Shown: positions 11,751 to 46,496 of the stretch, piece after piece | Layout: every line of letters starts with the position of its first letter | How positions within the stretch are numbered: the stretch's first letter is position 1 | Origin: a virus | Lineage: Duplodnaviria > Caudoviricetes | Direction: 5' to 3' (one strand) | Length of the DNA: 55,960 bases | IMG/VR virus record: IMGVR_UViG_3300029893_000010 | Location: 1 to 55,960 of that record | Program-made: the position numbers and the translations under genes | The notes under the pieces: model-generated | What the model was told of the DNA's origin: nothing | Databases searched by the model: none | The model's input: the letters and a program-made list of their open reading frames with translations, nothing else

Positions 11751-11915
11751 ATGAGAACAGCAATATTTTTAGGACTTTTGTACGTTGGCGATGCAATAAG
11801 AACCATATCAGGAGTCTCCACAACATCTCTGGCGTACGCAATACTTATCGTAATTGTCCTTGCGGTTTGTATTGTCATGGACATTGGCGATTTTTTTGAA
11901 ATCCAAAAACGATGA
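11751..11915 (+). CDS. Small membrane protein (54 aa)
   Basis: Manual translation MRTAIFLGLLY...; AAGGA RBS; ATGA overlap with the recombinase. Confidence 0.5.
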   Translation: MRTAIFLGLLYVGDAIRTISGVSTTSLAYAILIVIVLAVCIVMDIGDFFEIQKR

Positions 11916-12790
11916 ACATCCAATCCTTCCTTTCCTCTCTCAATCGCTCCCCTCGCACCATCCGTGCCTACGGTTACGCATTGCTGCGTTTCGAGGCCAT
12001 TGTCGGCGCGGATGCCGAGTTGACAGAGGATACCTATACGAAGTTCCTGAAAGCCATCAAGAACTTCTCCCCTTCCACGCAACAGCAGTGGACGACAGCC
12101 GTGCGGACGTTCTACCGTTTCCACCGTGCAGGAAATGATAGCGTTATGAAGGATCTGTCACGGCATTACCTTCGCAGGAAGGGGAAAAACACGCAAGAGC
12201 CCAACATGGAGAGTGTACAAAAGGTCATCGATTATTGCTCCACATTGCAGGGCGATCTGGCTGCCCTGCGCGACAAGGCATTTGTTCTCACCGTGTCGGA
12301 TTCAGGATTGCGCATTTCGGAGGCTTGTGCGTTATTGCGCGGTGATGTGGACTGGAAACGAAAACTGGCGAACATCGTCGGCAAGGGAGAAAAACGGGCA
12401 ACAGTTCACTTCTCCGACAGGGCGATGGATGCCATACAGCAGTATCTTGCAGCCAGATCCGCGGTCGAGCCGGATTCTCGAAAACCATTGTCCTCACAAC
12501 CTCTCTTTGCACGACACGACATCTCCGCCAGCAAGCGTATTCTTCCTGTGCGTTCTGGCGGGATGTGGAAGTCTATAAAATCCAGAATAAAAGAGGCTGG
12601 GGTTGAAAAAACGATCCGTATCCACGATTTCAGGCACTACTTCGTCTCGCGTCTCTACAACGCGACACGAGATATGATGATAACAAAAGAGGGCGCGCGC
12701 CATGAGTCCATCCAGACTACCGCAAGGTATACTCACCTTGACGAGACGTTTGGAGATGTATACAACAAGGTTTTCAATGATGGAGGTTGA
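11912..12790 (+). CDS. XerC/XerD-like tyrosine recombinase (not IntI-type)
   Basis: Catalytic residues in GLRISE, KGEK, HDFRH, RHESIQTTARY. No integron-integrase I2 insertion visible. Confidence 0.9.
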   Translation: MNIQSFLSSLNRSPRTIRAYGYALLRFEAIVGADAELTEDTYTKFLKAIKNFSPSTQQQWTTAVRTFYRFHRAGNDSVMKDLSRHYLRRKGKNTQEPNMESVQKVIDYCSTLQGDLAALRDKAFVLTVSDSGLRISEACALLRGDVDWKRKLANIVGKGEKRATVHFSDRAMDAIQQYLAARSAVEPDSRKPLSSQPLFARHDISASKRILPVRSGGMWKSIKSRIKEAGVEKTIRIHDFRHYFVSRLYNATRDMMITKEGARHESIQTTARYTHLDETFGDVYNKVFNDGG

Positions 12791-12909: not shown

Positions 12910-13074
12910 ATGGATAGTGCGGGATTCTTCGCAAAGCGATCCAGGTATTACAGAGATCTGTACTACAAAACCGTTCTCAAGGTTTTGATACGTCTCGTGA
13001 CTCTGGTTCTGTTTTTTGTCGTGTTCTTCGGTTTAGGTGTGATTATTTCGTCACTCCTATTAGGAGTGCTATGA
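12910..13074 (+). CDS. Small membrane protein
   Basis: MDSAGFF... with GGAGG RBS and a hydrophobic C-terminus. Confidence 0.45.
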   Translation: MDSAGFFAKRSRYYRDLYYKTVLKVLIRLVTLVLFFVVFFGLGVIISSLLLGVL

Positions 13075-21078: not shown

Positions 21079-21767
21079 TGCCAACTCTTTTCTGTGCCAA
21101 TGTGCTTCCAGGCGCCCCACACAGAAATTCCAGCCGGTCTCCATATCCACGGACCCGTATTCAGGCGGTACTGGTCATCCATGTGCAGTTCGATATTCCC
21201 TGGATTCCTGTCCTCCGCAAACCATCCGTATGCTTTTGTAAATCTTGCATGACGGATATAGGGATTGCCAGAGTAGGCATATTGGGTACTTTCCATGTAT
21301 TGCAGGAACATTTCGCCGTTACAGCCTACGGTGTGGACATCGGCTCCAGACGAAAGGATGCGATAGGTGATCGCTCCAACATCCTCCCGATCCGAAAGGA
21401 TGCGCATGTGCCGGGTGATGTCAAGAGTCTCGTCAAGGTTCCAGTCGTCCTCCAGCCAAAGTACATAATCGCTGAATTGATGGCAGATACCGAGCCCTTT
21501 GTTCCAGCCAATCCCGGCGTTGTGAGTATCCTCTTCGCCTTCATTGCGTATCCTGGCACTATGGAATCCGATGATGCGTTCGTTATTCTTCTCTAGCAGT
21601 TCCATGATTGACGCCATGTGATCCTGCGGGGATCCATCGTCCGCAATGTACCATCCGCGATTTTCCTTTGGATAACAAAGGTTTTCGCATGTCGATTTTA
21701 TTGTTTTCAGCGCCACTTCGGTGCGCTTGTATGTTGCAATGCAGATCGCAAGGTTAGGCGATGTCAT
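21075..21767 (-). CDS. GT2-like glycosyltransferase
   Basis: ICIATYKR, IADDGS, WLEDD. Confidence 0.8.
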   Translation of the reverse strand: MTSPNLAICIATYKRTEVALKTIKSTCENLCYPKENRGWYIADDGSPQDHMASIMELLEKNNERIIGFHSARIRNEGEEDTHNAGIGWNKGLGICHQFSDYVLWLEDDWNLDETLDITRHMRILSDREDVGAITYRILSSGADVHTVGCNGEMFLQYMESTQYAYSGNPYIRHARFTKAYGWFAEDRNPGNIELHMDDQYRLNTGPWIWRPAGISVWGAWKHIGTEKSWQ

Positions 21768-22701
21768 TCTTCAACAACTCCGCAAGTTCTTCCCTGGTAA
21801 GCCGCTCTGCGTTCTCGCTCGTGAACGGGATTCCCAATTCTGTTACGACCCTCTGTGTCGTTGTCGGTCGGACGACAAAGAAATCGTCGTGACTGCGAAC
21901 GAACTCAGCCTCCTCGAGAGACACAAGCGTTTCGTGTTTCTTCTCTCCGGGACGCATCGGAACCTGCCGATTGCCATGTTCTCCAATGGTGTAATCGAAT
22001 AACTGCTGGATGGACAATGACTTGAGTTTCGGAACGTAGATCTCACCGCTCTCCAATTCCAAACAATCCTCCACGATCTTTGCGGCGTGTGCAGGGGAAA
22101 GCCAGAAGCGGGTCATCTCCGGGTCTGTGATGGTCGGGGTTTCACCGCGCTCGATCTGCGCCTTCCACACCTCAATGACAGAGGCGGTGGACTCCAGTAC
22201 ATTCCCATACCGGACAAGGTGAAACTTTGTGTGAACAGGCAGGCGCGAGTATTCCTGAAAGATCTTCTCCATCAGATACTTTGTGGCGCCGTAGGCATTG
22301 GCTGGATGACAGGCTTTGTCGGTCGAGATGCCGATCACGCGATCAATTCCATGCTGGATGGCTGCGTTGGCAACATTGATTGACCCTTCTACATTGATAT
22401 GGTATGTGTCAATTGAGTTGTATTCACTTGTTGGGATCTCTTTCACTGCCGCAGCGTGAATAACGATGTCGTGTCCCGCCATTGCGTTATAAAGCGTGGT
22501 GTAGTCCCTTACATCACCAACAACTGTATGTATAAATGGAAAAAACCTTTTTATCCGAGCGTGCTTTGTTGGATCTGTTGAGAAAATGGTTATGTGATTC
22601 CCGTAATCCCTCTCTATACACCTTCTTATTATTTCCGTTCCAAGGGTGCCACACCCTCCAGTCACGAAAAGTCTTGCGTTATTGAAAGCATTTTTACTCA
22701 T
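21754..22701 (-). CDS. UDP-GlcNAc 4,6-dehydratase-like SDR (PseB/FnlA/CapD family)
   Basis: TGGCGTLG, HAAAVK, ISTDKA, YGATK, RYGNVL, RPGEKKHE. Confidence 0.9.
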   Translation of the reverse strand: MSKNAFNNARLFVTGGCGTLGTEIIRRCIERDYGNHITIFSTDPTKHARIKRFFPFIHTVVGDVRDYTTLYNAMAGHDIVIHAAAVKEIPTSEYNSIDTYHINVEGSINVANAAIQHGIDRVIGISTDKACHPANAYGATKYLMEKIFQEYSRLPVHTKFHLVRYGNVLESTASVIEVWKAQIERGETPTITDPEMTRFWLSPAHAAKIVEDCLELESGEIYVPKLKSLSIQQLFDYTIGEHGNRQVPMRPGEKKHETLVSLEEAEFVRSHDDFFVVRPTTTQRVVTELGIPFTSENAERLTREELAELLKNDIA

Positions 22702-25289: not shown

Positions 25290-27002
25290 TTATTGGGAAG
25301 TCTCAAGAGGCTCAACACCAACCGCTTCGGCGAACCAATTTGCCTGCGGTTTCTGCTTGACGAGTTTGTCGTCCTCTGAAACAACGTTATCTTTGGATGT
25401 GGACGGGCGCGTCCACGCCATTTTCTGCGTGACAGGAGGCGAGATCTTTTCCGCGAGTTTTTCGTCCGCATTGCTGGAAAGCGATTTCACCAGATTTTCC
25501 AGAACCTCGACCTTCTCAAGGGCGTCCTTCGCTTCTGCAACAAATTGGTTCAAGCCGGGAACATCAAGATGCTCGCTGACCGCTTTGATGATGGCTTCCA
25601 TGTCCGGCAAAGGCGCAGGTGCATCCTGTTTCTGGTGCGTCTCGGAAGCGGGCGCAGGCGTTTCTTCCTGCGGCTTCTTTTCCTTTTCCTCCACGCCAGC
25701 GGCGCGAAGGTCAGCCTGCTTGAGTCCCGAAGCCTCGTAGTATTCCTCAGCCCGTTCGTCGCCAAGCAGTGACGCGATATATTTCTTCTTATCCATATCA
25801 GCCTCCTTGCTAATTACGGAAATATCTGTGAACGGATTGGCGGCGTTTTCAAGCGGCAAATCCGATACTTCAACCATTCTGTATTTCGTGATCTGTTTTG
25901 GATCGTTCCGGTCACGTTCCAGGACGATGGTGCCGTGGGACATGCCAAGGTCGGTTTCCTTTTCAACGCGCATCAAGGCGGCAGCCTCTTCCGGCTCCAA
26001 GGGAGCGGACATCAGCATGAATCCATTCGTAAAATCAACGAAATCCACCTGATGCTTGCGTACCAGGCCTGCTTCATGCCATGTCGTAAAAACAGGCGCA
26101 AGGTGCATGTGTTCGTTGACCCATCCGGCATATTCCTCGTGCGCTTCCTTTGTCAGGATCTCGCCGTCCGTATCCTTGAAATTGTTCGTAGGCCACATCA
26201 CAGCCCGCCATGACCCGGACGAATCCTTTTCGATCATGATCGCCCCAGCGGTTTTCTCCATTTTTCCAATACCCATCTTCTTCGCGGCGGAACGGATCTT
26301 TGGGAGCGCCGCTTTTGCATCTGACGCCCCTTCCCCACCCTCTTCGATCTGTTGCGCCGCACGGGCGAGCGCGTTGCGTACATGTGCCTTGTCGTGGATG
26401 GGGTACTTGCGAACCTTTTTTCCATCACGTTCCACAACAAAAGCAAAGTCGGCATCGGAAAGTTTTTGTTCAGCGGCGTAGGTGAGTTTCGCCTTGGAGA
26501 TAAAATCCGTAAACCGTTCAAATGTGGATGTGTGGCGGGCGTCCTTTGCAAGCAACGATGAGATCTGGAGAACCTCCAATTCATCGTCGGTAATGGACTT
26601 TTCCATCCTGCCGGTTATTTTTTTTACGCGTTCTGAGTACCCACTGCCAACACTTGCGATGGCTTTCCCCTTTTCCTCTGGTGGCATCTCGCTGTAAAGA
26701 ATGTTGCTGACAAGATCGGACACCTTCCAGGATTCGCGGCGAACCTTGTCCGCCTTGATGGTGGCTTCCTCAAGAGCGTCCATTTCCTTCCACGAGGTTG
26801 GAATATTTGCGGATTGCCGGACAAGATCCTCTTCGGCATAATATTTTTCAACAACGTCCTGATCTTCTTGAGAATCAGAATCCTTGAGAATGGAATCCTC
26901 TTCATCACTCTCAAGTTCAAGTTCATTGCTTTTGATTTTGTCTCGTTCCGTGTGGCGCTGGCGTGTAGCGCGTCGTTTTTCGCGGAGTTTCTTGTTTGCC
27001 AT
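25290..27002 (-). CDS. Prohead protease / scaffold protein
   Basis: LSDADFA...RKYPIHDKAHVRNALAR segment, DTDGEI...GMSHG...EVSDLP..AANP protease-like motifs, acidic scaffold tail. Confidence 0.75.
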   Translation of the reverse strand: MANKKLREKRRATRQRHTERDKIKSNELELESDEEDSILKDSDSQEDQDVVEKYYAEEDLVRQSANIPTSWKEMDALEEATIKADKVRRESWKVSDLVSNILYSEMPPEEKGKAIASVGSGYSERVKKITGRMEKSITDDELEVLQISSLLAKDARHTSTFERFTDFISKAKLTYAAEQKLSDADFAFVVERDGKKVRKYPIHDKAHVRNALARAAQQIEEGGEGASDAKAALPKIRSAAKKMGIGKMEKTAGAIMIEKDSSGSWRAVMWPTNNFKDTDGEILTKEAHEEYAGWVNEHMHLAPVFTTWHEAGLVRKHQVDFVDFTNGFMLMSAPLEPEEAAALMRVEKETDLGMSHGTIVLERDRNDPKQITKYRMVEVSDLPLENAANPFTDISVISKEADMDKKKYIASLLGDERAEEYYEASGLKQADLRAAGVEEKEKKPQEETPAPASETHQKQDAPAPLPDMEAIIKAVSEHLDVPGLNQFVAEAKDALEKVEVLENLVKSLSSNADEKLAEKISPPVTQKMAWTRPSTSKDNVVSEDDKLVKQKPQANWFAEAVGVEPLETSQ

Positions 27003-27058
27003 CTTTCTCTCCATTTTTGGCATTGTAACGTAGAAATGGAGATTTTTGTCAAAATACG

Positions 27059-27093
27059 CAAAATGCACCCGCGAAAGGGACGGGTGCATTTTG
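27059..27093. terminator. Stem-loop between the cassette array and the head genes
   Basis: CAAAATGCACCCG / CGGGTGCATTTTG 13-bp inverted repeat. Confidence 0.55.
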
Positions 27094-27130
27094 TCTGAGT
27101 GGAGCAGGCACGAAGCGAACTTCCTGATTT

Positions 27131-27139
27131 ATTATAGCA
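27131..27139 (-). promoter_or_regulatory. Extended -10 promoter element
   Basis: TGCTATAAT upstream of the scaffold gene. Confidence 0.5.
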
Positions 27140-27143
27140 TAAT

Positions 27144-27317
27144 TTACGGTCTTTGCCTTGAAATGTTTATGACATCTTTTTGGTATTGAACGGTCAATAC
27201 CATTGCGTCTTTATGGGAGAATCCGCTTTCTATCAAAGCATCATAATAAGCACGAACCAAAGTAGCGAACTGGCTGACACCTTGAACAAGTTTTTCAAAA
27301 TCTGTAAGTTCTTCCAC
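27144..27317 (-). CDS. Small hypothetical protein (57 aa)
   Basis: GTG start with GGAGG RBS; MEELTDFEKL...YYDALIESGFS. Confidence 0.6.
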   Translation of the reverse strand: MEELTDFEKLVQGVSQFATLVRAYYDALIESGFSHKDAMVLTVQYQKDVINISRQRP

Positions 27318-27343
27318 TTTTGATACCTCCGCCAGTATGGGGC

Positions 27344-27451
27344 TGGCTACGGGCTTGCGCTACCTGCCGTATTTTGTGGATTTGCGCTGGGTAGTGGATG
27401 ACGACTTTTGAACCGTAGACTTGGCGATGTCAGGTGGACGCTTTGTTTGGC
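27344..27451 (-). other. attC A7 (terminal, non-canonical core GTAGCCA)
   Basis: GCCAAACAAAGCGTCCACCTGAC...GCAGGTAGCGCAAGCCCGTAGCC. Confidence 0.65.
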
Positions 27452-27560
27452 GGCGCTCTGGAATAAAAGATACCACCAAAAACAACAAGACTGAAACACA
27501 AAGACCAATTGCCGACTCAATAATTTTTACTTGTCTGTAATTCTCAAGGAACCAATCCAT
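27360..27560 (-). CDS. Cassette A7 small membrane protein
   Basis: One TM segment; AAAGG RBS; stop lies in the attC L' box. Confidence 0.65.
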   Translation of the reverse strand: MDWFLENYRQVKIIESAIGLCVSVLLFLVVSFIPERRQTKRPPDIAKSTVQKSSSTTQRKSTKYGR

Positions 27561-27592
27561 CGTTTTACCTTTCTCTCGGATGGCAAGGAAGC

Positions 27593-27727
27593 CGCCAACG
27601 GTTATGCTTTACCTGCGAATGCCGCAGTTTTCGCATTCCAACATTTCTGGCGTATCCAACGTACCATCCCATTTGAAAACATGAGGAAGCCCAGTGCGGC
27701 ATTTGTCAGGTGCAAGCGGTGTTAGAA
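27593..27727 (-). other. attC A6
   Basis: TTCTAACACCGCTTGCACCTGACAAATGCCGCA...TGCGGCATTCGCAGGTAAAGCATAACCGTTGGCG. Confidence 0.85.
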
Positions 27728-27866
27728 GGCGTTCTTGCTGGCAAGTTTTACACTGGCAATCTCTACCATGTAGGTGATTCGGATGCGTGAAGTATTCGCC
27801 ACATTTAGCGCAAAACCTGTTTTCAGGAAAGACAACATCAGGCAAGGTCATAAAATAATGTTTCAT
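27609..27866 (-). CDS. Cassette A6 second ORF, Cys/His-rich
   Basis: MKHYFM start, GAGG RBS, several CxxC; stop in L'. Confidence 0.65.
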   Translation of the reverse strand: MKHYFMTLPDVVFPENRFCAKCGEYFTHPNHLHGRDCQCKTCQQERLLTPLAPDKCRTGLPHVFKWDGTLDTPEMLECENCGIRR

Positions 27867-28066
27867 TTTTTTACCTCGTATTCGTAACAATCTTGGCATA
27901 CACCCTTTTTATACACAACACCTTCACCGCAAACAGAGCAAATAGCAGATTTCTTACAATTTTCACACTTATACACGCGCAAAACTACATTGCTATCAAT
28001 TACCTTCATGTAGAAATTTAGTTTTTCGTGGCAAGACGAGCATGTTAGTATTATTGACGTTTGCAT
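27863..28066 (-). CDS. Cassette A6 first ORF, zinc-finger protein
   Basis: Four CxxC motifs; ATGA overlap with the next ORF. Confidence 0.65.
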   Translation of the reverse strand: MQTSIILTCSSCHEKLNFYMKVIDSNVVLRVYKCENCKKSAICSVCGEGVVYKKGVCQDCYEYEVKK

Positions 28067-28073
28067 GATAGCC

Positions 28074-28190
28074 TTCTAACGGTTTGCGTTACCTGCGCTC
28101 ATTCTTCGCCCGAACACTCATGGCAAAGAGGGATAATTTCATCGCCACAACCTGTGCAGTAAATAGCGTCAGGTACACGCTTTGTTAGAA
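28074..28190 (-). other. attC A5
   Basis: TTCTAACAAAGCGTGTACCTGACGC...GCGCAGGTAACGCAAACCGTTAGAA. Confidence 0.9.
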
Positions 28191-28395
28191 GGCTTATTTC
28201 ACCTTCTGATACTACGCGAGTAAGACCATAACTAGGCTGATCCCATCTGAAGTGAATGCGAGTATGCCAGTTAGTGAGATTGCCAGCCGCATCCCAAGTT
28301 GCGTCAATATAATTTTCAAGGACATAACCTACTTCGGCGTTATCGTCTATGACTTCATCGCCGCGATTGAATGGGGGAAGTTGTTTATTTTGCAT
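28099..28395 (-). CDS. Cassette A5 hypothetical protein
   Basis: FNRGDEV KOW/SH3-like start; the C-terminal CTGC...CHEC is encoded in the attC loop. Confidence 0.7.
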   Translation of the reverse strand: MQNKQLPPFNRGDEVIDDNAEVGYVLENYIDATWDAAGNLTNWHTRIHFRWDQPSYGLTRVVSEGEISLLTKRVPDAIYCTGCGDEIIPLCHECSGEE

Positions 28396-28402
28396 GATAG
28401 CC

Positions 28403-28495
28403 TTCTAACGTACTTGCGTTACTGGTTTGCGGGTTGCGCCACGAGTGCCGAATTTGCGGACGAGTCTAGCAAATCCAGTGCACGCGTAGTTGTGC
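28403..28495 (-). other. attC A4
   Basis: GCACAACTACGCGTGCACTGGATTTGC...GCAAACCAGTAACGCAAGTACGTTAGAA. Confidence 0.85.
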
Positions 28496-28711
28496 CGCGC
28501 GTTTGTTGGCAAGTTCAACAGCCGCGCCATCGTGCGGGGCTGTAATCACAAACGATTTTCCTTGCGCCATGTGGACGGTATATTTTGAGTTACGCCCGAC
28601 GCGGCGTCGCCCAAATGAACGCCTGATATAAGACCCATCGGCAGCGGTGCAAACACGTTGCGCCAATGCCTGCTCAATTCGCTGACCTGTTTCTGTTGGC
28701 AAAGTAAACAT
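28466..28711 (-). CDS. Cassette A4 hypothetical protein
   Basis: MFTLPTE with GGAG RBS just after the core site. Confidence 0.6.
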   Translation of the reverse strand: MFTLPTETGQRIEQALAQRVCTAADGSYIRRSFGRRRVGRNSKYTVHMAQGKSFVITAPHDGAAVELANKRAAQLRVHWIC

Positions 28712-28726
28712 ATTTCTCCAAGAGCG

Positions 28727-28855
28727 GTACAACGGCTTACATTACCCGCTTATGGGCGGGACGAGACGAACTACGGGAGGAGTAAAATCTTCGGGCGTAG
28801 TCCACTGCATGGGAGCCGCAGACTCCCCATAAGTCGGGTGCATGTTTTGTTGGGC
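28727..28855 (-). other. attC A3
   Basis: GCCCAACAAAACATGCACCCGACTTATGGG...CCCATAAGCGGGTAATGTAAGCCGTTGTAC. Confidence 0.9.
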
Positions 28856-28969
28856 GGCTTGCCTGCCTGCCAGATACGCTGCGTGCGCGATTTCACGCAA
28901 ACCGACATCAACATTTTCCATCAGGCGAAATTTATTGATAGTCCACCATGTTTCAAATTCTTTATCCAT
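28742..28969 (-). CDS. Cassette A3 hypothetical protein
   Basis: MDKEFETWW...AYLAG; AAGGAG RBS; stop in L'. Confidence 0.7.
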   Translation of the reverse strand: MDKEFETWWTINKFRLMENVDVGLREIAHAAYLAGRQAAQQNMHPTYGESAAPMQWTTPEDFTPPVVRLVPPISG

Positions 28970-28994
28970 AAGACTCCTTCGTTGAGCGAGAGCC

Positions 28995-29107
28995 GCCCAA
29001 CGGTTTGCGTTACCCGCTTTCGGCAGGCAAGGCATTTTCAACTTTCACGAATTCGGGCAGGCTCAAAACGCCAGCCTTCAAAGAGTCGGGTACACGCGGT
29101 GTTAGGC
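28995..29107 (-). other. attC A2
   Basis: GCCTAACACCGCGTGTACCCGAC...GCGGGTAACGCAAACCGTTGGGC. Confidence 0.9.
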
Positions 29108-29669
29108 AACCTGCCCATTGCGCCGCAAATGCGTTTGCGATACCCTGATACGTGCGTGACCGCTCATGTGAACGGTTTTTACCAGGTGACATTTTATGTA
29201 TTCTTTGCTCTCTACCTTCCACGATATTTGTACTCTCCAAAAATGGCAAACCTTTTAGCCAAAGGCATGTAGCTTTTGTTTCACCATGCCCGAACTGATA
29301 CGGTTGTATTACTTGATCGTATTTTCTTCCAATGATTTCAACCGCGTATTTATGGGGTATAGGGTTTTCAACTGCAATCTTTGTGATAGGTGCGTTCAGA
29401 ATGAGTTTGAAAAACTCGGCTGCTTCCCGCATTTCCCGCCAAAGGTTTCTTTCTGCGAGCCAACGAACGCCCGAATTACATAACCTTGTGCAGGGAGGAT
29501 GTGCAACCATCAAATCCCACCCGCTGTATAGAATATCTCGGATGTCACCCTGATAGTGATTGCCTGGTATTTCCGTAGGCAATAAATCACACGACCAGGA
29601 TTCATGACCGAGCGCGGAGAACGCTTCACGAACCACACCACTGAACTCACAAGCTACAAGGATACGCAT
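29010..29669 (-). CDS. Cassette A2 phage-type DNA cytosine methyltransferase-like protein
   Basis: LVACEFSG, SCDL, AHPPCT, VENP, RSRTYQGIA..A.QW motifs. Confidence 0.8.
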   Translation of the reverse strand: MRILVACEFSGVVREAFSALGHESWSCDLLPTEIPGNHYQGDIRDILYSGWDLMVAHPPCTRLCNSGVRWLAERNLWREMREAAEFFKLILNAPITKIAVENPIPHKYAVEIIGRKYDQVIQPYQFGHGETKATCLWLKGLPFLESTNIVEGREQRIHKMSPGKNRSHERSRTYQGIANAFAAQWAGCLTPRVPDSLKAGVLSLPEFVKVENALPAESG

Positions 29670-29675
29670 AGGGTT

Positions 29676-29801
29676 GCCTAACGGTTTGCGTTAGCGGCGA
29701 GTGCCGCACTCTGAACAAATATCGGGATACGTTTGCTGGTCGGTGTACGCTGGCTTGGCGTGACAATGTGGGCACTCGTCCGCCTGCACGCTTTGTTCTA
29801 C
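29676..29801 (-). other. attC A1
   Basis: GTAGAACAAAGCGTGCAGGCGGACGAGTGCC...GGCACTCGCCGCTAACGCAAACCGTTAGGC. Confidence 0.9.
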
Positions 29802-29996
29802 CGCCTTCCTGCTATTGCGCATTACAACACGAGCGGCAAGGCGACCGATTGCAAGCAACTTCTGACGCTCAACCTTATCAGCCAGCGTAGATAATTCATT
29901 TGCCAATTTGCTGTTTTCGTAGCCATCATTCGCGCGGATGAAAAAAGCCGCTTTGCGTGCTGCTTCAATCAATTGATTTAATTCTTCGTTTGCCAT
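29691..29996 (-). CDS. Cassette A1 hypothetical protein
   Basis: AAGGAG RBS; CPHC...CSEC encoded in the attC; stop in L'. Confidence 0.7.
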   Translation of the reverse strand: MANEELNQLIEAARKAAFFIRANDGYENSKLANELSTLADKVERQKLLAIGRLAARVVMRNSRKAVEQSVQADECPHCHAKPAYTDQQTYPDICSECGTRR

Positions 29997-30019
29997 ATCA
30001 CTCCTTTTGCCAAGAGGCG

Positions 30020-30048
30020 GTAGAACTAGTGTTTAACCAGAATGTACA
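30020..30048 (-). other. attI-like site of array A
   Basis: TGTACATTCTGGTTAAACACTAG|TTCTAC; closely matches 43620-43648; TAAA-N5-GTT as in attI1. Confidence 0.7.
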
Positions 30049-30282
30049 TTATATTTCCAAGTCCTCTATCCGAACCTTGAGCATATCCAAGGCTTCCTGC
30101 GGTACCGATGTGTATCCAAGATGTCTGAAATAGTGGATGATGGCGTGGCGGGAAACATCCGTCGGGTTAATCGTAGTTGACAGAATTCCTTTATTCTTAT
30201 CGGATGCGATCTTTTCAAGAATCCAGTCAAATGGATCCCCATTTTGAATTCTCTTTCCTTGATTTTTGTGTATCTTCTTCAT
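30049..30282 (-). CDS. Hypothetical protein flanked by dif-like sites
   Basis: 77-aa ORF directly downstream of a promoter. Confidence 0.6.
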   Translation of the reverse strand: MKKIHKNQGKRIQNGDPFDWILEKIASDKNKGILSTTINPTDVSRHAIIHYFRHLGYTSVPQEALDMLKVRIEDLEI

Positions 30283-30289
30283 GCCATCT

Positions 30290-30318
30290 AGTGTATCGCA
30301 TAATGTACATTATGTCAA
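30290..30318 (-). promoter_or_regulatory. Sigma70 promoter (Pc-like) reading into array A
   Basis: TTGACA-N17-TACACT, 7 nt before ATG 30282. Confidence 0.65.
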
Positions 30319-30320
30319 CA
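30293..30320 (+). other. dif-like (Xer) site
   Basis: GTATCGCATAA-TGTACA-TTATGTCAACA; 21/28 identical to E. coli dif by manual comparison. Confidence 0.65.
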
Positions 30321-30321
30321 C

Positions 30322-30822
30322 TTACATCTTCCTTCTGGCAACTTCCGTAACAGCCTCCTGCATATCCATGGCAAATTCACTGGCGTATGTCTGAGCGATC
30401 TGTTCTGTGAAATTCCTTGCTTCAAACCCTGGATGATTTATCGAATACGCCACACGCGGTCGTCCAGATCGATACTTTCTGCTGGATTGCAACGATCCCG
30501 GTCGTGTGGCTGCTTTATACCCTGGTCTATACACCATTCTTGTGAACCCTGTTTTTGGAATGCGGTGCGGAGGAGAGCCAGCGTTTACCAAGTTCCATAT
30601 ATCTGCGCCCTCTCCACGTGGATATACGTTGATGGTGATCTCATCACTTCGGACGGTTTGTGCCCATCCGAAGTCGGGCTTCTTGCTCCATCCAAACACC
30701 GTCTTTTTAAATAACTCCCGAAGTTTCGGAAGAGACTTGGCGCGTTGTTTTGACGCAATGGCATTGAGCCATCCGCGTTTCGCAAATTCAACCTTTGGAA
30801 GTGAGACCTTGACGCTAATCAT
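30322..30822 (-). CDS. Putative head-tail / tail completion protein (HK97 gp10-like)
   Basis: GSPPHRI...INHPGFEARNF motif; follows portal. Confidence 0.6.
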   Translation of the reverse strand: MISVKVSLPKVEFAKRGWLNAIASKQRAKSLPKLRELFKKTVFGWSKKPDFGWAQTVRSDEITINVYPRGEGADIWNLVNAGSPPHRIPKTGFTRMVYRPGYKAATRPGSLQSSRKYRSGRPRVAYSINHPGFEARNFTEQIAQTYASEFAMDMQEAVTEVARRKM

Positions 30823-32281
30823 TTCCCATCAACACTTCCATCGCCTTGCGTAATCGTCCTCCAGCGTTCACTTCCTGACGACCGTTCTCAACACGTCTGG
30901 CATCCTCGCCAGCGGTCGATCCACCGACCTGTCCGATCTTATTCTTGCTGTCCGGGTCATTCTCTTCCTTCCAGAATTCTTCCGGGATGCCGTCCAGGGT
31001 CGGGAAGATCCCCCTTTCCACCAGCTGCTCGGCAATGAACCTGCGCGGGAAGATCTTTGCGCGCGACGCCATGACAGCCTCCTCCATGGCTTTTGTGCGC
31101 ACTTCCTGACGCTCCATTTCCTCCTGCTCGTTCTTGTCGTTGAACACCATCTTCACACCACGAGGAAGGACTCCGTAATTTCTGAATGCTTCCGTCAGGG
31201 AGTCCATCCAGTTGCGCGGACCTTTTCCGCTGGATTTTTTGTTGAGGATGACGGACTGTGAAGCCGACCCGATGTTGCCGCCCGGCAGCGGGGCGAGATC
31301 CTGATAATCAAGTCCAAAGTTCAATGCCAGACCGGATATATACCACTGCATGTCCTCATCCAGATTGTATCCATCTGGAAGAGAAGCCAATTCCACCGTG
31401 ACGAGAGAGACGGGTTTTTCAGGGTCAAGAGAGGCCAGCACTACGTTTTCGGTAAACCGTGCCTGTCCCTTATTGCCGGAGTTGTAACTTGTCCTCGAGA
31501 TCGCATCTGTGACAGATTTCTGCGAAACACCGCCGACAATGTGCAGATCCTTCGGATTGCGTCCTGAGATCTTTTCATCCTTGTAGATCAACAGGGAGCG
31601 CATGATCTGCGCCAGTCTCAGAGAGCGTGTCACGGAGCAATACCCAACCCCGTTCATGCGTTCTATTGGCGATGGAAATTCTGAAAACGGGATCACCTCC
31701 CACCACCGCATTTTGTGGATGCGGCCATCTCTGTCTGTGTAGAGGATGGGAGTTTCTGGATTTCCTGTGCGCTGACATTGATTGGAATCCAAATGCGCAA
31801 TTCCGATGACGGGCGCGTTCTGGTCCTTGAACCTCGAATTCGCATCAACGCCAGGGTCGCGGATAAGTTCGATGAAAGAGCCATTGTCCTGGGTCGATCC
31901 ATCCATTGAGAACTTCTTGACGAATTCGACCCATCCGATCTTGTCTCCGGCAATAGCCGTGTTCAACATTTCGGTGACGGCTTGTTCCACCCGATCCGAT
32001 CCGGCTTTGATCTCCCAATCGAACGCGGCATTGCGGGACGCGACGTTCGTGACCGCTCCAGCCAGGTATGGTTCGGTCGGCCAGAAATCACGCAACTCCC
32101 TGTCGCGCCGTGCCTGGTTCTTCCCCCACGGGGTTATGGCGTCCGCTGCCGTAGCAAGGAATAATGTAAATTCACTTCCCTGCCACGGGAGGTTTTGTAC
32201 TGGAGGTTGCACCTGCTTGCTCCCCGCCAGAGCCTCCGTTGGGAATTGTTCCTCCGGGATCAGTTTGGGTGTGTTTGCCAT
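30815..32281 (-). CDS. Portal protein
   Basis: 488 aa downstream of TerL; NGSFIELIR, GVGYCSV and ALNFG portal-like features. Confidence 0.75.
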   Translation of the reverse strand: MANTPKLIPEEQFPTEALAGSKQVQPPVQNLPWQGSEFTLFLATAADAITPWGKNQARRDRELRDFWPTEPYLAGAVTNVASRNAAFDWEIKAGSDRVEQAVTEMLNTAIAGDKIGWVEFVKKFSMDGSTQDNGSFIELIRDPGVDANSRFKDQNAPVIGIAHLDSNQCQRTGNPETPILYTDRDGRIHKMRWWEVIPFSEFPSPIERMNGVGYCSVTRSLRLAQIMRSLLIYKDEKISGRNPKDLHIVGGVSQKSVTDAISRTSYNSGNKGQARFTENVVLASLDPEKPVSLVTVELASLPDGYNLDEDMQWYISGLALNFGLDYQDLAPLPGGNIGSASQSVILNKKSSGKGPRNWMDSLTEAFRNYGVLPRGVKMVFNDKNEQEEMERQEVRTKAMEEAVMASRAKIFPRRFIAEQLVERGIFPTLDGIPEEFWKEENDPDSKNKIGQVGGSTAGEDARRVENGRQEVNAGGRLRKAMEVLMGND

Positions 32282-32766: not shown

Positions 32767-35292
32767 TCACAAGTTCAATCTCATAACCATGTAACTTCCC
32801 ATGCTCGCCGTGACCGCAAGGTCAACCTTTAGGTTTTCGGCGCGCTTGACGATCCTTATGCGTGTGCTTTCCGTGTCGATCTTGGCGTCCGCGTTCTGAA
32901 AGTGTTCGCGGTCGAACGGTTCGCCGCGATGCCAGTATCTACGGTCACGGATCAAGTCCTTCATCTGGCTGTCCGCAAGGAGACGTAGAGACACCTGGTT
33001 GAACGAGAAGAACCATGCGAGACCTTCCTTCCGCAACCGTCCTGCCATATCATGTAACTGGAATGGATCGTACGCCACGCAGATGACATTATAATCTTTT
33101 ATCCACCTGCGTAACATCAATTCGGGTCCAGGGTTTTCCTCTGTTCCCTGGTAGTCGATCTTATTCCCTTTTGGGACCCACAACATCGACTGCAATTTAA
33201 CAACGTGTTCCGGTTCCTTTGGATGACGACATCCCATCCACATGCCGAACGAGTCGCCTGAGACAGAGGCGTCCATGGCGATCACAACGGGATGATCCTT
33301 TGGTATTTCAGGATACTCGCTTCTCTTGCAGGCGTCATACCACTCCATCGGCAAAAATGTCTCTGTGCTTGTCACCCACTGATTGCGGTGCATTCGCTGG
33401 AATTGATTGTCCTCAAGAATTGATGCCTCGGATTGATAGTATTCCTTTGTCTGCCAAGGGCAGCGTGGTTTCGTGTTCCATAAACAGATCATGCCTGCCT
33501 TTTTATTGACGTACACCTCCAGCGGGGCAGGTTCTCCATCGGTCACAGGGTACAACCGGTCAGGCCATAACATCTCACCTTGTTTGACGCCGAGGTCGTA
33601 CAGCGAATATAGCAGGTTACTCTCACCGGCGAAGCCTGCGTAACTTTCAACCCAGCGGAATGCTTTTCCGTATTTCGTTGGGGGTATGGTCATCTCCGAA
33701 TTTCCTGTCACAAACGGTCTACCTTCCCGTCGAGCGACGAATAATCCGCTTGAAACAGTTGGACACCATACTTTTCCCTTGTATTTTTTCAACTTCCAAT
33801 TGCTCTTATGTATTGATACCTGAACATTTCCAGTTGTGAGATTTACCCTCCACCATTTTTGATGAGGACGCACCGACGACCTGATCCCTCTCCGAAATGC
33901 AATTTCCTGCAAGTCATCAGCCATTCCCTTGGATGCACACGTTATCTGGAATGACCCGTCTTTTTTGATGTGCCCATCTCCAAGAATATACGAGTGAAGA
34001 AATATATCCAGTATCTCGCGGTCGGCATGAATTATTTCACGCGGGACACGTTTCTCGAAAGTCTTTCCAAACTTCTTCGTTATCGCCGCCAATTCCGTGC
34101 TGCTTATCTTGAATCCATCGCGTTTTGAAACCTTCACCCAATCCCCGAAAATATCCACCAAGATTGAGTGTATCTCGTCGTACTTCTCAGGATGTGGTTC
34201 CCGCAATTGAGATATTTTTACATGGCATGGTTTTCCTCTATAATCCGATGTGCTCCCTTCTGTCAGATACAGACCCAGAAACGCAGCCCACTTCTTGAAA
34301 GGAATATAGAGCGGTTCGTGGAATTTTGTTCGTTTGAGCCACACGCCCGGAGGATTTTCGGGAGAATGCGATACATAAAGCGGAGTTGTTACCGGGTGGT
34401 AATAACTGTATTTTGAATTTCTCAACTCCTCTGATGTCATCACAAAATTTTTCCCTTTTTCGTCATTCGCGCCAGAGAATGTGTAACCTCCATACAGACG
34501 GTGCTTGCTTGTACATGCAATTGAAAAAATCCTGTGCTCATACAGGTGAAGTTCCCCATCAAAATCAGACTTGAAGATGTTTTCCGGTTTCTCCCATTCT
34601 ACATATCCATTCCGATACGCGGCGATGTAATCATCATGCGTCAGGTCGATTCCTTTTTTCCATCCGTCGAACGTCAAAACGTCAGTTTCCTCATCAAGAC
34701 ACCACATATTTTGCTTCGCGGTTTCGTTCGCGCCCCACAACTCCGAGAAGGTAATCATGTCAGCATTCGAGCCAGCCTCGCCGCTCGGGTCAATAGGGAT
34801 GGCTTCAATGTACGATCCACTCGGGACGACGATCTTGTACCCGGTCATCTTGCACGACTTCTTGTGTTTATCGTTCAACTGGATGTTACGGCGGAGATAA
34901 TGCGCGACGCGGCTGTCCGCCTGCTTGAGATCGTTAGCGATCACATACAGCTCGCCAAATTCTGAGTGCGTGGCTATCGCAAAGTTGACCGCCGCGGCAA
35001 TCGTTGATTTTCCAGATTTCTTGATGTCAGACCACACCACGATGGAATATTTATAATTTCCGTTCTCGTCGGTCGTCAGGATCTCCCGCAGGACATCCTC
35101 CTGATATTTCTGGAGTCCGATCCTGCCTTTCAGCACCGGGTCATGTTTCGTCTCGGGGATGTAGAAGTTCCGTTTGATCCAGTCAACCAGATCCTTCCTC
35201 CCCTCGCTCCTCTTCGTCTGTTCCCCAATCATCTCCGCGATCTTCTTCTCCAGCAAGGTCGCTGCGGTCTCCGATGATCCTTGAGTATTCAT
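32767..35292 (-). CDS. terL: Terminase large subunit containing an intein
   Basis: KKSGKST Walker A, ITFSE Walker B variant, AMDAS...D, AYDP and VDLAV nuclease motifs. Confidence 0.9.
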   Translation of the reverse strand: MNTQGSSETAATLLEKKIAEMIGEQTKRSEGRKDLVDWIKRNFYIPETKHDPVLKGRIGLQKYQEDVLREILTTDENGNYKYSIVVWSDIKKSGKSTIAAAVNFAIATHSEFGELYVIANDLKQADSRVAHYLRRNIQLNDKHKKSCKMTGYKIVVPSGSYIEAIPIDPSGEAGSNADMITFSELWGANETAKQNMWCLDEETDVLTFDGWKKGIDLTHDDYIAAYRNGYVEWEKPENIFKSDFDGELHLYEHRIFSIACTSKHRLYGGYTFSGANDEKGKNFVMTSEELRNSKYSYYHPVTTPLYVSHSPENPPGVWLKRTKFHEPLYIPFKKWAAFLGLYLTEGSTSDYRGKPCHVKISQLREPHPEKYDEIHSILVDIFGDWVKVSKRDGFKISSTELAAITKKFGKTFEKRVPREIIHADREILDIFLHSYILGDGHIKKDGSFQITCASKGMADDLQEIAFRRGIRSSVRPHQKWWRVNLTTGNVQVSIHKSNWKLKKYKGKVWCPTVSSGLFVARREGRPFVTGNSEMTIPPTKYGKAFRWVESYAGFAGESNLLYSLYDLGVKQGEMLWPDRLYPVTDGEPAPLEVYVNKKAGMICLWNTKPRCPWQTKEYYQSEASILEDNQFQRMHRNQWVTSTETFLPMEWYDACKRSEYPEIPKDHPVVIAMDASVSGDSFGMWMGCRHPKEPEHVVKLQSMLWVPKGNKIDYQGTEENPGPELMLRRWIKDYNVICVAYDPFQLHDMAGRLRKEGLAWFFSFNQVSLRLLADSQMKDLIRDRRYWHRGEPFDREHFQNADAKIDTESTRIRIVKRAENLKVDLAVTASMGSYMVMRLNL
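33700..34701 (-). mobile_element. Intein with LAGLIDADG endonuclease (334 aa)
   Basis: NMW|CLDEETDVLT...WCPTV...VTGN|SEM; FLGLYLTEG and FLHSYILGDG LAGLIDADG-like helices. Confidence 0.9.
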
Positions 35293-35965
35293 ATTGCAAC
35301 CTCTTTAGTTTTTTTGCGTCGTCGCCAATAACGTTCATGCTCGCTGCCAGTAATTTCGCCGCCAGTTCCATGGCGTCCTCGGCGGTGATGATGGCTTTGA
35401 TCTCTTTCAAAACCTTCATCTCGCTTTCCACCATTTTCCGCCGTACGTCCAGTGCGCCAAATATCTGCTCCCATGCCTTGTAGTCATGGTACACATCCTC
35501 AAAGGCGCTGTCGATCTGGACACGCAATATCATCTCTTCGTCTGTGCGCCCGGACGCCTGCGCTTCCCGATACTCCTGCCACAGTCCGTACAGTTTTCCA
35601 ACCCTGTCCGGTGCCTCTCCAATGTCCACACGCTCCAACAACTGCCTGACGCGCGTATCCACAATATCTATGGCGGCTCGGTTCGACAGGACACTTCCGT
35701 TATTTTGAACCTCCCTGTACTTCGACGCCAACCTGGTGATCTGGAACGATGAAGAGGCTCCACTGCTCATTGTGCCCGACCCATAATAATTGTTCTCAGG
35801 ATTCGGTCCACCATGGAACTTGCAACGCGCGTACCCAGCCACAGGATAGTTCCCGCAACGAAGATCAACGCCGCAATTCGGACAATTTCTCTCCCGCTCG
35901 GGATTGTCGGTGTTGCAAGACTTACACTTCTTTTTGATGTATGTGCATTTTGGTCTGCCATTCAT
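35183..35965 (-). CDS. terS: Terminase small subunit (zinc ribbon plus HGG motif)
   Basis: CKSC...CPNC...RCKFHGG; directly upstream of TerL. Confidence 0.7.
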   Translation of the reverse strand: MNGRPKCTYIKKKCKSCNTDNPERERNCPNCGVDLRCGNYPVAGYARCKFHGGPNPENNYYGSGTMSSGASSSFQITRLASKYREVQNNGSVLSNRAAIDIVDTRVRQLLERVDIGEAPDRVGKLYGLWQEYREAQASGRTDEEMILRVQIDSAFEDVYHDYKAWEQIFGALDVRRKMVESEMKVLKEIKAIITAEDAMELAAKLLAASMNVIGDDAKKLKRLQYEYSRIIGDRSDLAGEEDRGDDWGTDEEERGEEGSG

Positions 35966-43576: not shown

Positions 43577-43619
43577 CGAGACGTATCGGTATTGGGAGGG
43601 TGCGATCCTCTCAATATCG

Positions 43620-43648
43620 TGTACATTCTGTATAAACCCTAGTTCGGC
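43620..43648 (+). other. attI-like site of array B
   Basis: TGTACATTCTGTATAAACCCTAG|TTCGGC; closely matches the array A site. Confidence 0.7.
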
Positions 43649-43674
43649 GCTTACTTGCAAAAGGAGATAAAAAC

Positions 43675-44199
43675 ATGCCCGACACAATCGAAGATATTGA
43701 AGCCGATATTATGTGGCTTGAAGAAGCAATCGGCGAAAATGAAGAAAGGCTTGAAGAACTTACCAGCGAAAATTACAAGCCAGAAGAAAATGCGGATGAT
43801 GAATACCGTGAAAAAGACATCGAAGAACTCACCGAAGGTATTGCGGAATACCGCCGTGAGATTGCAAAGTGTCAAAGAAAAATCGAAAGGCTGAAACGCG
43901 CCGAGCGTGAACGCCAAAATAAAAAGTGGGGTGAGCAAAACCACGATGATTATCGTTGGCTTGCTATCCTCACAGAAGAAGTAGGTGAATTGGCACAGGC
44001 TATTTTGCATGATGAGTTTGGCGGTTCGCACGCTGGCACTGCTAAAACTGAACTCGTTCACGTCGCCGCTGTTGCGGTTCAATGGTTGGAGTGCATGGAA
44101 AGGCGGCAACTAACACAGCGTGCACCGGACGCTACGCCACAGCCGCCATTGCGTGGCGAGGTATGGCGTAGCGATGAAGAATTGCCAACAGGCGTCTAG
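43675..44199 (+). CDS. Cassette B1: acidic coiled coil fused to a MazG-like NTP pyrophosphohydrolase domain
   Basis: ERERQNKKWG...ILTEEVGELAQA...ELVHVAAVA. Confidence 0.7.
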   Translation: MPDTIEDIEADIMWLEEAIGENEERLEELTSENYKPEENADDEYREKDIEELTEGIAEYRREIAKCQRKIERLKRAERERQNKKWGEQNHDDYRWLAILTEEVGELAQAILHDEFGGSHAGTAKTELVHVAAVAVQWLECMERRQLTQRAPDATPQPPLRGEVWRSDEELPTGV

Positions 44200-44226
44200 T
44201 CGCGCCAGTAACGCAAACCGTTAGCC
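44108..44226 (+). other. attC B1
   Basis: AACTAACACAGCGTGCACCGGACGC...GCGCCAGTAACGCAAACCGTTAGCC. Confidence 0.85.
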
Positions 44227-44252
44227 TGCTCCGCGCTTTTGAAAGGTGTCTT

Positions 44253-44771
44253 ATGGAAAAAGACGAACACGAAAGATTAGTAAATCTTGCAATGCAAGTA
44301 GTTAAAGGATTAATGGAAATGCCGCCTGTAAATATAAATTGCAAATGTGGTCATAGTGCTTTTGACCATTCCGACGATACTGGATGCGACGCAAAGGGAT
44401 GCTCCTGCTCAGAAGGGTTTGAGGAGGTCGCCAGCGGTGCGTTGACAAAACTTGAAACAGAGATTGACAATTTACACAGAGAAATCAATCTACTCAAAGC
44501 AACAAATCATCGCCTACGCACAGAGAAGGATAACGACTACGATGCCGCGCTTGAATGGGCGGCGGATTGGGTCACTGGGGCACAGTTATCTGGTCACAGT
44601 GATGAAGTCCAAGAATATGCTCGCAACATGGCAATGTCCATTCGGGCAGCAAAGCGCGGGCTAACAAAGCGTGCACTGGACGGGGCTTGCGAGTCTTGCA
44701 AATTAGAACTCACCCCGTCATGTCCAATCCGCACTGGTAATGGCTGTGATTTATTCCAGCCCCGCCAGTAA
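44253..44771 (+). CDS. Cassette B2 Cys/His-rich protein
   Basis: CKCGH...H...C...CSC.F motif; stop in L'. Confidence 0.7.
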   Translation: MEKDEHERLVNLAMQVVKGLMEMPPVNINCKCGHSAFDHSDDTGCDAKGCSCSEGFEEVASGALTKLETEIDNLHREINLLKATNHRLRTEKDNDYDAALEWAADWVTGAQLSGHSDEVQEYARNMAMSIRAAKRGLTKRALDGACESCKLELTPSCPIRTGNGCDLFQPRQ

Positions 44772-44786
44772 CGCAATCCGTTCGGC
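44659..44786 (+). other. attC B2
   Basis: GGCTAACAAAGCGTGCACTGGACGGGG...CCCCGCCAGTAACGCAATCCGTTCGGC. Confidence 0.9.
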
Positions 44787-44816
44787 GGACTGCTCAACAG
44801 CATAAAGGAGATTTCA

Positions 44817-45086: not shown

Positions 45087-45113
45087 AGGCACAAAGCCCA
45101 GAAGAGTGATCGA

Positions 45114-45159: not shown

Positions 45160-45175
45160 TTCGTCGTCAAAATTC

Positions 45176-46494: not shown

Positions 46495-46496
46495 CC

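Follow-up and report, generated by a model that had tools for sequence, protein, structure and literature searches.

Integrons are usually regarded as adaptation devices of bacteria, and recent work casts their gene cassettes as stores of anti-phage defence. In the scheme of Cury et al. (2016, PMC4889954), at least two clustered attC sites with no intI gene nearby are classed as a CALIN, that is, a cluster of attC sites lacking an integron integrase, and integrons in Chloroflexi are noted in the same work. For phages, the closest described systems are those of Qi et al. (2023, PMC9892861), who screened 10,705 phage genomes and detected components of integrons in 21, among them 17 CALINs and five methyltransferase cassettes. 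According to that study, IntI1 recombines 5 of 6 tested phage attC sites, and it was proposed that phages can draw on the cassette pool. An earlier reading of the present DNA from its letters (the sequence-only reading) had held that integrons are largely absent from phages, a view that is dated since phage CALINs were published in 2023 (PMC9892861). The DNA analysed here is the complete IMG/VR virus record IMGVR_UViG_3300029893_000010 (Duplodnaviria; Caudoviricetes), a phage genome of 55,960 bases recorded as linear and 96% complete (CheckV); this whole stretch is called the window below. It carries ten attC-type sites at three loci, and at every locus they run in the direction of the neighbouring genes. 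Besides the seven-cassette array of the sequence-only reading (array A), three further sites were found, two at 44.1–44.8 kb (array B) and one degenerate site at 13.4 kb (C1). On the sequence evidence, the window likely holds an integrase-less integron platform, in which attI-like sites head CALINs in a phage genome and IntI would be supplied in trans.

Like the CALINs of Qi et al. (PMC9892861), the window has attC-bounded, mostly co-oriented cassettes in a phage, no nearby intI, and methyltransferase cargo. Those CALINs come from cultured phages, with at least two predicted attC sites each and no attI described in the article text; its supplementary tables lay outside the comparison and may list a relative. 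In contrast, ten sites at three loci occur here in one genome, together with two attI-like heads and attC sites of Chloroflexota type, and more than 100 related viral stretches were found. Within the literature covered, which left aside supplements and subscription journals, Qi et al. 2023 was the only work on integrons in phage genomes, and there was no report of Chloroflexota phages, an orphan phage attI or a large viral-metagenome scan. What is new here is the orphan attI-like sites, the presence of several platforms in a single genome, attC sites of a Chloroflexota family, how widely this family occurs in uncultivated viral contigs, and a cassette form peculiar to phages.

Array A lies on the minus strand from 30026 to 27340 (its top strand is the minus strand) and consists of seven co-oriented units, A1 to A7. 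Each unit begins with GTT and a cassette-specific start, contains one open reading frame (ORF; two in cassette 6) and ends in an imperfect inverted repeat of 92–135 nt, as measured with 7-nt R boxes. The seven attC-type inverted repeats are present where the sequence-only reading had placed them. The repeat runs from a specific sequence ending in AAC through AAAGCGTGCACC.GAC, a variable loop and GC.GGTAACGCAAACC to the GTT. Among all ten sites of the window, the inverse core is AAC in nine (C1 has AAA) and the core is GTT in nine (A7 has GTA), and the G|TT core that had been claimed for array A holds in A1–A6 and fails in A7. A repeat search recovered 7 copies of the L′/R′ (3′) arm and 5–6 copies of the 5′ arm, and a two-arm pattern gave 6 matches in the window vs. 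0 in 100 dinucleotide shuffles.

The feature that marks integron cassettes, namely an inverse core complementary to the cassette's own 5′ end, was confirmed in array A. In the repeat search, the exact complements between inverse core and own cassette start were 12/12 in A1 and 11/11 in A2, A3 and A5. When the inverse cores of A1–A7 were compared with the core of the previous site at positions 4–12, the matches were 9, 8, 8, 7, 8, 7 and 3 of 9, the low value of A7 being due to a 1-nt indel (one extra T). In total, 50 of 63 positions matched the previous site's core vs. 27 of 63 when each inverse core was set against the core of its own site; permuted core assignments had a mean of 28.6, and only 32 of 200,000 permutations reached 50 or more.

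The structure of the sites points in the same direction. A covariance model (R1), built from the nine clear window sites only, scored those sites at 66–100 bits in the window, followed by C1 at 21.6 bits, with everything else at 12 bits or less. The structure on the nine-site alignment combines an R box of three pairs with an unpaired spacer and an L box of 12 pairs, the last interrupted by two unpaired positions on the R″/L″ arm; 87% of cells are paired, 7 of 15 pairs have changed on both sides, none of 500 shuffles equalled this, and the pairing falls to 22–33% when the partner is shifted by 1–3 columns as a control. Both unpaired columns belong to the 5′ arm of the top strand. They correspond to a bottom-strand C and T that are 6 bp apart, which we take to be like the extrahelical bases of textbook attC sites. 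The folding of the bottom strands, for which the sequence-only reading had called, was mostly canonical in one form of the sites and patchy in the other. Within the array, 4 of 10 sites took the canonical minimum-energy shape, and weak folding is expected there because each site's core in the array belongs to the next cassette. When each site was completed with the first 11 letters of its own cassette, as in the excised circle, and compared with 100 mononucleotide shuffles, 6 of 7 array A sites formed a single hairpin in which 10–12 of the 12 R-box positions were paired; the z-scores were −3.4 to −6.2 for these six and −0.8 for A7. In each test run, the behaviour of the repeats supports their reading as integron attC sites, as far as sequence can tell.

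The same attC family is found in other viruses and in Anaerolineales. A strict pattern retrieved 108 contig stretches from IMG/VR and at least 120 stretches from a genome collection; among the genome matches listed, 65 of 80 are named as Anaerolineae, Anaerolineales or other Chloroflexota, and 11 of 80 carry other names. R1 found 304 sites in the 80 viral loci scanned (of the 108). The attC of A3 has 89% identity to L048:1336-1468. Five such genomes were examined, three of which have IntI proteins scoring 445, 438 and 336 bits (cut-off 265), and in the 20-kb regions around these three genes R1 found 20 sites of 45–65 bits. In two of the three regions the array diverges from intI and starts at most about 1.5 kb away, which is the textbook integron layout. 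Since a model trained on the phage sites finds the intI-adjacent arrays of these chromosomes, the window repeats are placed in the attC family of Anaerolineales chromosomal integrons, and it is very probable that they are integron cassettes of this family. The cassette rule also holds across loci. With position-weight matrices of both arms applied to the 108 viral and 120 genome loci, the inverse core matched the own 5′ end at 6.56 of 9 positions in the viral loci (n = 271; same-site core 3.98, random cores 4.01) and at 7.19 of 9 in the genome loci (n = 205; same-site core 4.5, random cores 4.3).

Some of the viral relatives carry an integrase of their own. IntI is encoded, with 395–405 bits, in 6 of 50 other viral records of this attC family (G011, G024, G039, G045, G048 and G051, corresponding to loci L242–L247, L024, L058, L073 and L096), and some of these records have terminal repeats and 100% estimated completeness. 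Their intI points the same way as the array, and a docking motif of another type, ...GATAAGGATA|GTT, follows the intI stop within about 50 nt. From the attC and attI types, Anaerolineales (Chloroflexota) is the likely host lineage of the window phage. A search of 301 genomes from the order of G001 did not find the portal-like protein of the window, a result that gives no evidence either way on the host.

Both arrays start at a recognisable motif. The 33-nt leaders of arrays A and B are identical at 27/33 positions and end in TAAAC-N3-TAG|TT, and the pattern TAAAY-N1-3-TAGTT has two occurrences in the window, each precisely where an array begins, vs. 0.18 expected. In array A the docking site, TGGTTAAACACTAG followed by TT, lies at 30024..30039 (minus strand) with the crossover G at 30026, after which the 5′ end of cassette A1 begins; in array B, TGTATAAACCCTAG followed by TT lies at 43629..43644 (plus strand), is 16/16 identical to the motif of L144 and differs at 1 of 16 positions from the motif of L239, which stands 130 bp from intI. 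In host integrons, the motif TGTATAAA(C/A)-N2-3-TAG|TTGGGC is located 60–210 bp from a divergent intI at six distinct loci (L116, L152, L164, L203, L239 and L240). A de novo route, in which the first attC of each array was paired with the best upstream complement of its inverse core and matches of at least 8/9 were kept, showed that TA precedes GTT at 20 of the 30 first-cassette starts from viruses and at 11 of the 22 from genomes vs. 3.1% in the background, and the first-cassette starts share the consensus ...TAAAC.(A/C)TA|GTT. In array A, the 5′ end of the first cassette matches its own inverse core at 12/12, as insertion by attI × attC predicts. Because the motif adjoins host intI, starts both arrays, precedes first cassettes and is followed by the 12/12 match of A1, both leaders are read as attI-like sites, and they would function as attI. 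The exact 25-nt leader was absent from the metagenome contigs and viral contigs searched, and a degenerate search for the phage-type leader returned L009 and L010 only.

An integron integrase was not detected in the window. The IntI profile, run over all 55,960 bases, found only a 292-aa tyrosine recombinase (11912..12790, plus strand) at 52.7 bits, compared with the NCBIfam cut-off of 265. The XerA, XerC and XerD models gave 112–132 bits (XerA 132, XerC 117), each below its own cut-off. The protein keeps the catalytic residues and lacks a block of about 28 residues that is common to five aligned IntI from host and viral loci; this block presumably contacts the extrahelical bases, as in the VchIntIA-attC structure. 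By its sequence, the recombinase is classed as Xer-like, other than an integron integrase, and an IntI with the IntI-specific additional domain, by which a complete integron is recognised, was not found in the window. Array A has seven sites within 2.5 kb and array B two within 0.7 kb, and with no intI both agree with the definition of Cury et al. (PMC4889954); they are classed as CALINs on this basis, yet with a recognisable attI-like head. For the statement that the phage uses integron chemistry to hold, the integrase would have to come in trans.

The cassettes show signs of movement. Over 706 nt, cassette A2 and L004:10440-11145 have 94.9% identity, and in a global alignment the identity is 88–98% inside the cassette, 47% upstream of the conserved L′ arm, and 56% then 32% after the downstream G|TT. 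In L004, the methyltransferase cassette is third behind an attI-like motif, and its neighbours are unrelated to those in the window. An A2-type cassette is thus reused in a different array, bounded by G|TT on both sides. In addition, Logan contigs of four sequencing runs were compared with positions 27000–30400, run X3 being another sample of the same study and X4 belonging to another study; uncovered parts of the array in X4–X6 were counted as absent only if bridged by a contig. The attC arms are where contigs break. The body of A4 (28485–28733) was found in other contexts in X4 and X6; in a 3.4-kb contig of X4 that contains it, the sequence past the crossover at 28733 resembles an attI-type motif. 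In X3, records 1 and 8 show the flanks contiguous with array segments in an independent sample, and in one contig (depth 16, side 27) the leader is fused at 30024 to the beginning of cassette A3. In X4, the flanks of the array are present (27000–27146 with 0 differences, 30031–30400 with 9), the methyltransferase and the A5 body are without cover, and two contigs (side 25) join the leader to A6. All three leader joints share exactly the 3 crossover letters. These joints are suggestive of different cassette content at one docking site, and recombination may still occur in this phage. Most of the joints in these contigs (e.g., 28186 to 28991 and 29014 to 29677), whose sides of 20–22 letters fall between conserved attC arms, are taken as cross-matches from other cassettes and rejected as excision products.

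The following mechanism is proposed. IntI, from a chromosomal integron of the host or from a co-infecting IntI-encoding phage, would act on the folded bottom strands of the attC sites and excise cassettes as circles by attC × attC recombination at G|TT. The circles would be inserted at the attI-like sites of the phage and then expressed from phage promoters, so that the phage would be able to take up, shed and rearrange small accessory genes, which in the window encode a DNA methyltransferase and short Cys-rich proteins. It seems rather probable that the enzyme involved is a trans-acting IntI. In other bacteria, IntI expression and prophage induction are both SOS-responsive, which would bring enzyme and substrate together.

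Another enzyme has been considered: the phage's own Xer-like recombinase would act on the attC and attI-like sites, making a self-sufficient system without IntI. C1 follows its gene at a distance of 570 bp in the same orientation; in L010, 220 bp separate a homologue of 52% identity from the end of an attC array, and the same phage-type leader occurs there in a 92%-complete record without IntI; L021 and L023 have weaker homologues (38% and 32%) directly beside their arrays; and in viral loci with IntI, the integrase is likewise co-oriented, with the array directly after it. However, the missing block and the better XerA/XerC/XerD scores described above separate the protein from IntI, a homologue above 30% identity is present in only 3 of 108 viral loci, and a phage integrase beside accessory genes is commonplace, all of which makes this explanation quite unlikely. 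It could also be that the arrays are fossils, that is, pieces of host or phage integrons captured once, through homologous, illegitimate or off-target insertion, and now fixed as phage genes with attC scars. The degenerate terminal sites (GTA in A7, AAA in C1), the break of the cassette rule by B1 and a genome without IntI would suit such a history, and IntI can insert cassettes outside att sites, as has been reported (10.1101/2022.09.11.507474). However, 6 of the 7 inverse cores in array A still match their own 5′ ends at 7–9 of 9 positions, which drift would erode; two separate arrays each start at an intact attI-like motif; the methyltransferase cassette is 95% identical in a different array; and contigs of two other samples suggest other cassette content at the same docking site, so fixed fossils are considered unlikely. 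That the repeats are hairpins unrelated to integrons (terminators or elements like repetitive extragenic palindromes), or that the record is an assembly chimera of phage and host, is very hard to uphold. Each repeat is indeed a hairpin at the 3′ end of a gene, and contigs do break at the repeats, but R1 finds attC arrays beside bona fide IntI genes, the cassette-specific complementarity is unexplained by a terminator model, the arrays are co-oriented with phage genes on both flanks, and in X3 flanks and array are contiguous. The terminator, repeat-element and chimera readings were rejected as contradicted by the R1 matches at IntI loci, the complementarity and the contiguity in X3.

Several points weigh against the integrase-less platform served in trans, and they should be read together with the evidence above. 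The z-scores of the in-array folds are modest (−2.7, −0.7, −0.8, −0.6, −2.9, −2.9, +0.1, −2.1, −2.75 and −0.4 for the ten sites; 5/10 at −2.1 or lower). The inverse core of B1 does not match the 5′ end of its own cassette, and with the GTA core of A7 and the AAA inverse core of C1 this means that parts of the system are decaying. The contig joints are suggestive: their sides of 25–27 letters are below the caution line of 30, they come from contigs and not from reads, and the metagenomes are rich in related attC arms. The record is linear and 96% complete, and an intI could lie in the missing end. No close relative was located among the viral contigs or the viral and genome loci, hence there is no comparison at the same locus. 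Finally, the host lineage is read solely from the attC and attI type.

The arrays can further be compared with related systems. They resemble the sedentary chromosomal integrons of Chloroflexota in the attC family, the cassette rule and the core of the attI motif, whereas the host arrays have an adjoining divergent intI, a near-uniform attC length, longer cassettes and ORFs that do not run through the attC. With the complete viral integrons of the same attC family they share similar short cassettes and close attC sites (up to 93% identity to A5 and 89% to A3); those integrons differ in having their own IntI and the ...GATAAGGATA|GTT motif, while the window has no IntI and a motif of the host type. 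That IntI inserts cassettes at secondary sites of a genome (10.1101/2022.09.11.507474) would account for cassettes found apart from a complete integron; unlike such insertion at an arbitrary GTT, the two insertion points of the window share a 12–16-nt motif with host attI. A further group of elements is worth setting beside the arrays. Phage morons and the mobile promoter-stem-loop cassettes of the T4 type are small accessory genes with their own transcription unit between conserved modules. They are bounded by direct repeats or by a promoter and a terminator, whereas the cassettes of the window are bounded by attC hairpins with cassette-specific R boxes.

From its sequence, array A is predicted to be a self-contained transcription unit composed of a promoter-like site, a 77-aa ORF, the cassettes, a 57-aa ORF and a terminator-like hairpin, all on the minus strand. 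The promoter-like site TTGACA-17-TACACT (30290..30318), which comes from a consensus scan alone (10/12 matches), is a match to a sigma-70-like consensus that does not cover Chloroflexota promoter rules; it lies upstream of the 77-aa ORF and the array. The 77-aa ORF (30049..30282), for which no family was found, is the first gene of the unit. The 10-nt palindrome AATGTACATT stands on either side of this ORF, at 30041–30050 and at 30302–30311, the latter copy lying in the promoter-like spacer, and it may serve as an operator or form the left half of an attI of phage type. A near copy of AATGTACATT is found at 43619–43628, ahead of array B, and GTACAWTC precedes the docking motif also in L009, L010, L013, L027, L045, L050 and L091. 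At the other end, the 57-aa ORF (27144–27317) is followed by the strong terminator-like hairpin (27059..27093), a 14-bp stem and then a T run, which closes the unit.

The cassettes of array A are as follows. Cassette A1 (30025–29682) has its attC at 29672..29805 (79.9 bits; excised-circle fold z −6.15) and an ORF of 101 aa (29691–29996), which continues through the attC and ends in a CxxC...CxxC tail. Cassette A2 (29681–29001; attC 28991..29111, 86.8 bits) encodes, in an ORF of 219 aa (29010–29669), a DNA methyltransferase (phrog_757, E 1.3e-59). Cassette A3 (29000–28733; ORF 28742–28972, 76 aa) ends in an attC at 28723..28859 with 91.0 bits and a canonical fold. The shortest attC of the array, that of A4 (28399..28499, 92–93 nt, 65.7 bits), belongs to the cassette 28732–28409 with an ORF of 81 aa (28466–28711). 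The attC of A5 (28070..28194), the highest scoring one at 100.1 bits, has a canonical fold (z −2.86); its cassette (28408–28080) holds an ORF of 98 aa (28099–28395) whose CxxC...CxxC tail lies within the attC and whose match to DZR is below the threshold. Two ORFs share cassette A6 (28079–27599), one of 67 aa that is Cys-rich (27863–28066) and one of 96 aa (27609–27899), ahead of an attC at 27589..27731 (75.3 bits, z −2.90). The last site, A7 (27340..27455, 78.3 bits, z +0.13), has the degenerate core GTA in place of GTT and one extra T in its inverse core, and closes the cassette 27598–27350 with an ORF of 66 aa (27360–27560). The methyltransferase is the only cargo that can be named; the remaining cassette proteins are small, have no assigned family, and several are Cys-rich. 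Accordingly, the methyltransferase named in the sequence-only reading is borne out, its zinc-finger proteins come down to Cys-rich proteins that remain sub-threshold for zinc-ribbon families, and, as it had also stated, no resistance genes were seen.

Array B is located on the plus strand, directly upstream of the replication genes. Its first attC, B1 (44104..44230, 83.2 bits), goes with an ORF of 174 aa (43675–44199) that matches phage families of unknown function. The inverse core of B1 predicts a 5′ end resembling the first cassette of L010, and the actual 5′ end of B1 is similar to what follows the last attC of array B, as each starts with GTTCGGCG. B1 (43642–44230) may be a fusion of two cassettes. 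The second attC, B2 (44655..44790, 82.5 bits), has an ORF of 172 aa (44253–44771), and its inverse core matches its own 5′ end at 9/10. After B2 comes an ORF of 89 aa without an attC (44817–45086), and then a hairpin and T run near 45110–45165. The third locus is the degenerate attC-like site C1 (13361..13489, plus strand), with 21.6 bits, an E-value of 2e-4 over the whole window and AAA for AAC in the inverse core. It sits at the end of a Cys-rich ORF of 137 aa (13071–13484), 570 bp downstream of the recombinase gene. The ORF that follows C1 (13493–13729) starts with MRIL like the A2 methyltransferase and then, judged by eye, resembles the C-terminal end of an adenine methyltransferase; it looks like the deletion remnant of a methyltransferase cassette.

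The cassettes of viruses and hosts differ in form. The median cassette length from G to G is 433 nt in the viral loci vs. 808 nt in the host loci, and the attC lengths (10th–90th percentile) are 91–129 nt in viruses vs. 124–130 nt in hosts. The phage attC sites fall into length classes near 90, 110 and 125 nt, and almost all host sites lie at 124–130 nt. In many viral arrays the first attC lies only 147–169 nt after the docking crossover, which leaves a tiny first cassette (L009, L010, L013, L017, L035, L038, L041, L047, L048, L050, L060, L070, L082 and L091). Moreover, 195 of 316 viral sites (62%) have an open frame of at least 60 codons that crosses the entire attC and ends at the conserved TAA in the L′ arm, compared with 9% for the other two frames, whereas in host arrays such read-through is 17% vs. 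16% in the control. For the window, the count of read-through is 5 of 8, and the sites concerned are A1, A2, A3, A6, A7 and B2. Tails coded by attC have at least two CxxC motifs in 14% of 169 viral cases vs. 0% in the other frames. In phage cassettes, then, the attC seems to double as coding sequence.

As for the surroundings, array A is flanked by a portal-like gene on one side and, on the other, by a 599-aa DUF6582 protein and then a 498-aa protein; both arrays are co-oriented with the phage genes on either flank, and the G+C content is 43–49% in array A vs. 51–57% in its flanks. The portal-like protein (30815–32281) is near Atlas portal clusters (0.96–0.97), which is a lead only, and the 498-aa protein has a weak capsid lead (SU10_MCP on 13% of one Atlas cluster). 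Pfam, PHROGs, NCBIfam and PDB sequence searches returned no family for the 488-aa and 498-aa flanking proteins, whose leads come from the Atlas. The position inside the head module, as previously described, is plausible from these portal-like and capsid Atlas leads. The large terminase gene (32767–35292) has a LAGLIDADG-type insert (Pfam PF14528, residues 431–478), probably an intein, and genes for a replication initiator and a DnaB-like protein are at 45583–47483. A second full-length DNA methyltransferase gene (50547–51692; phrog_116, E 5e-46) does not belong to any cassette, and the phage also has sugar-metabolism genes, for a nucleotide-sugar epimerase-like and a SIS-domain protein (21754–22701 and 35962–36504). 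In the search for relatives, a peptide-pattern search of viral contigs with the portal-like protein gave no match. When 26 window proteins were compared by tblastn with the 108 viral and 131 genome loci, the genes flanking the array were unmatched and only the large terminase matched (63%, in L094). A blastn search of the array against 50,697 phage records found only methyltransferase genes with 71–75% identity and no attC array. An Rfam scan of the whole window had no matches and is uninformative, as attC is not an Rfam family.

It is possible, and put forward tentatively, that uncultivated phages, in a large group whose hosts are probably Anaerolineales, maintain integrase-less attI sites in dedicated transcription units, rely on the IntI of the host or of sister phages, draw from a common pool of miniaturised, phage-specific cassettes (median about 430 nt) and use attC as coding sequence. 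The window offers a near-complete phage genome with two docking sites and ten attC sites of the presumed host type, and no integrase. This makes testable the flow of cassettes between host integrons and phages, the service of an orphan attI in trans, and the shuffling of anti-restriction or counter-defence genes. It also provides a natural case in which attC may be read as coding sequence, which bears on the genesis of cassettes and on the sequence freedom of attC. If the proposed mechanism is true, the integron would be a device for counter-defence and the shuffling of accessory genes in viruses too, and not in bacteria alone.

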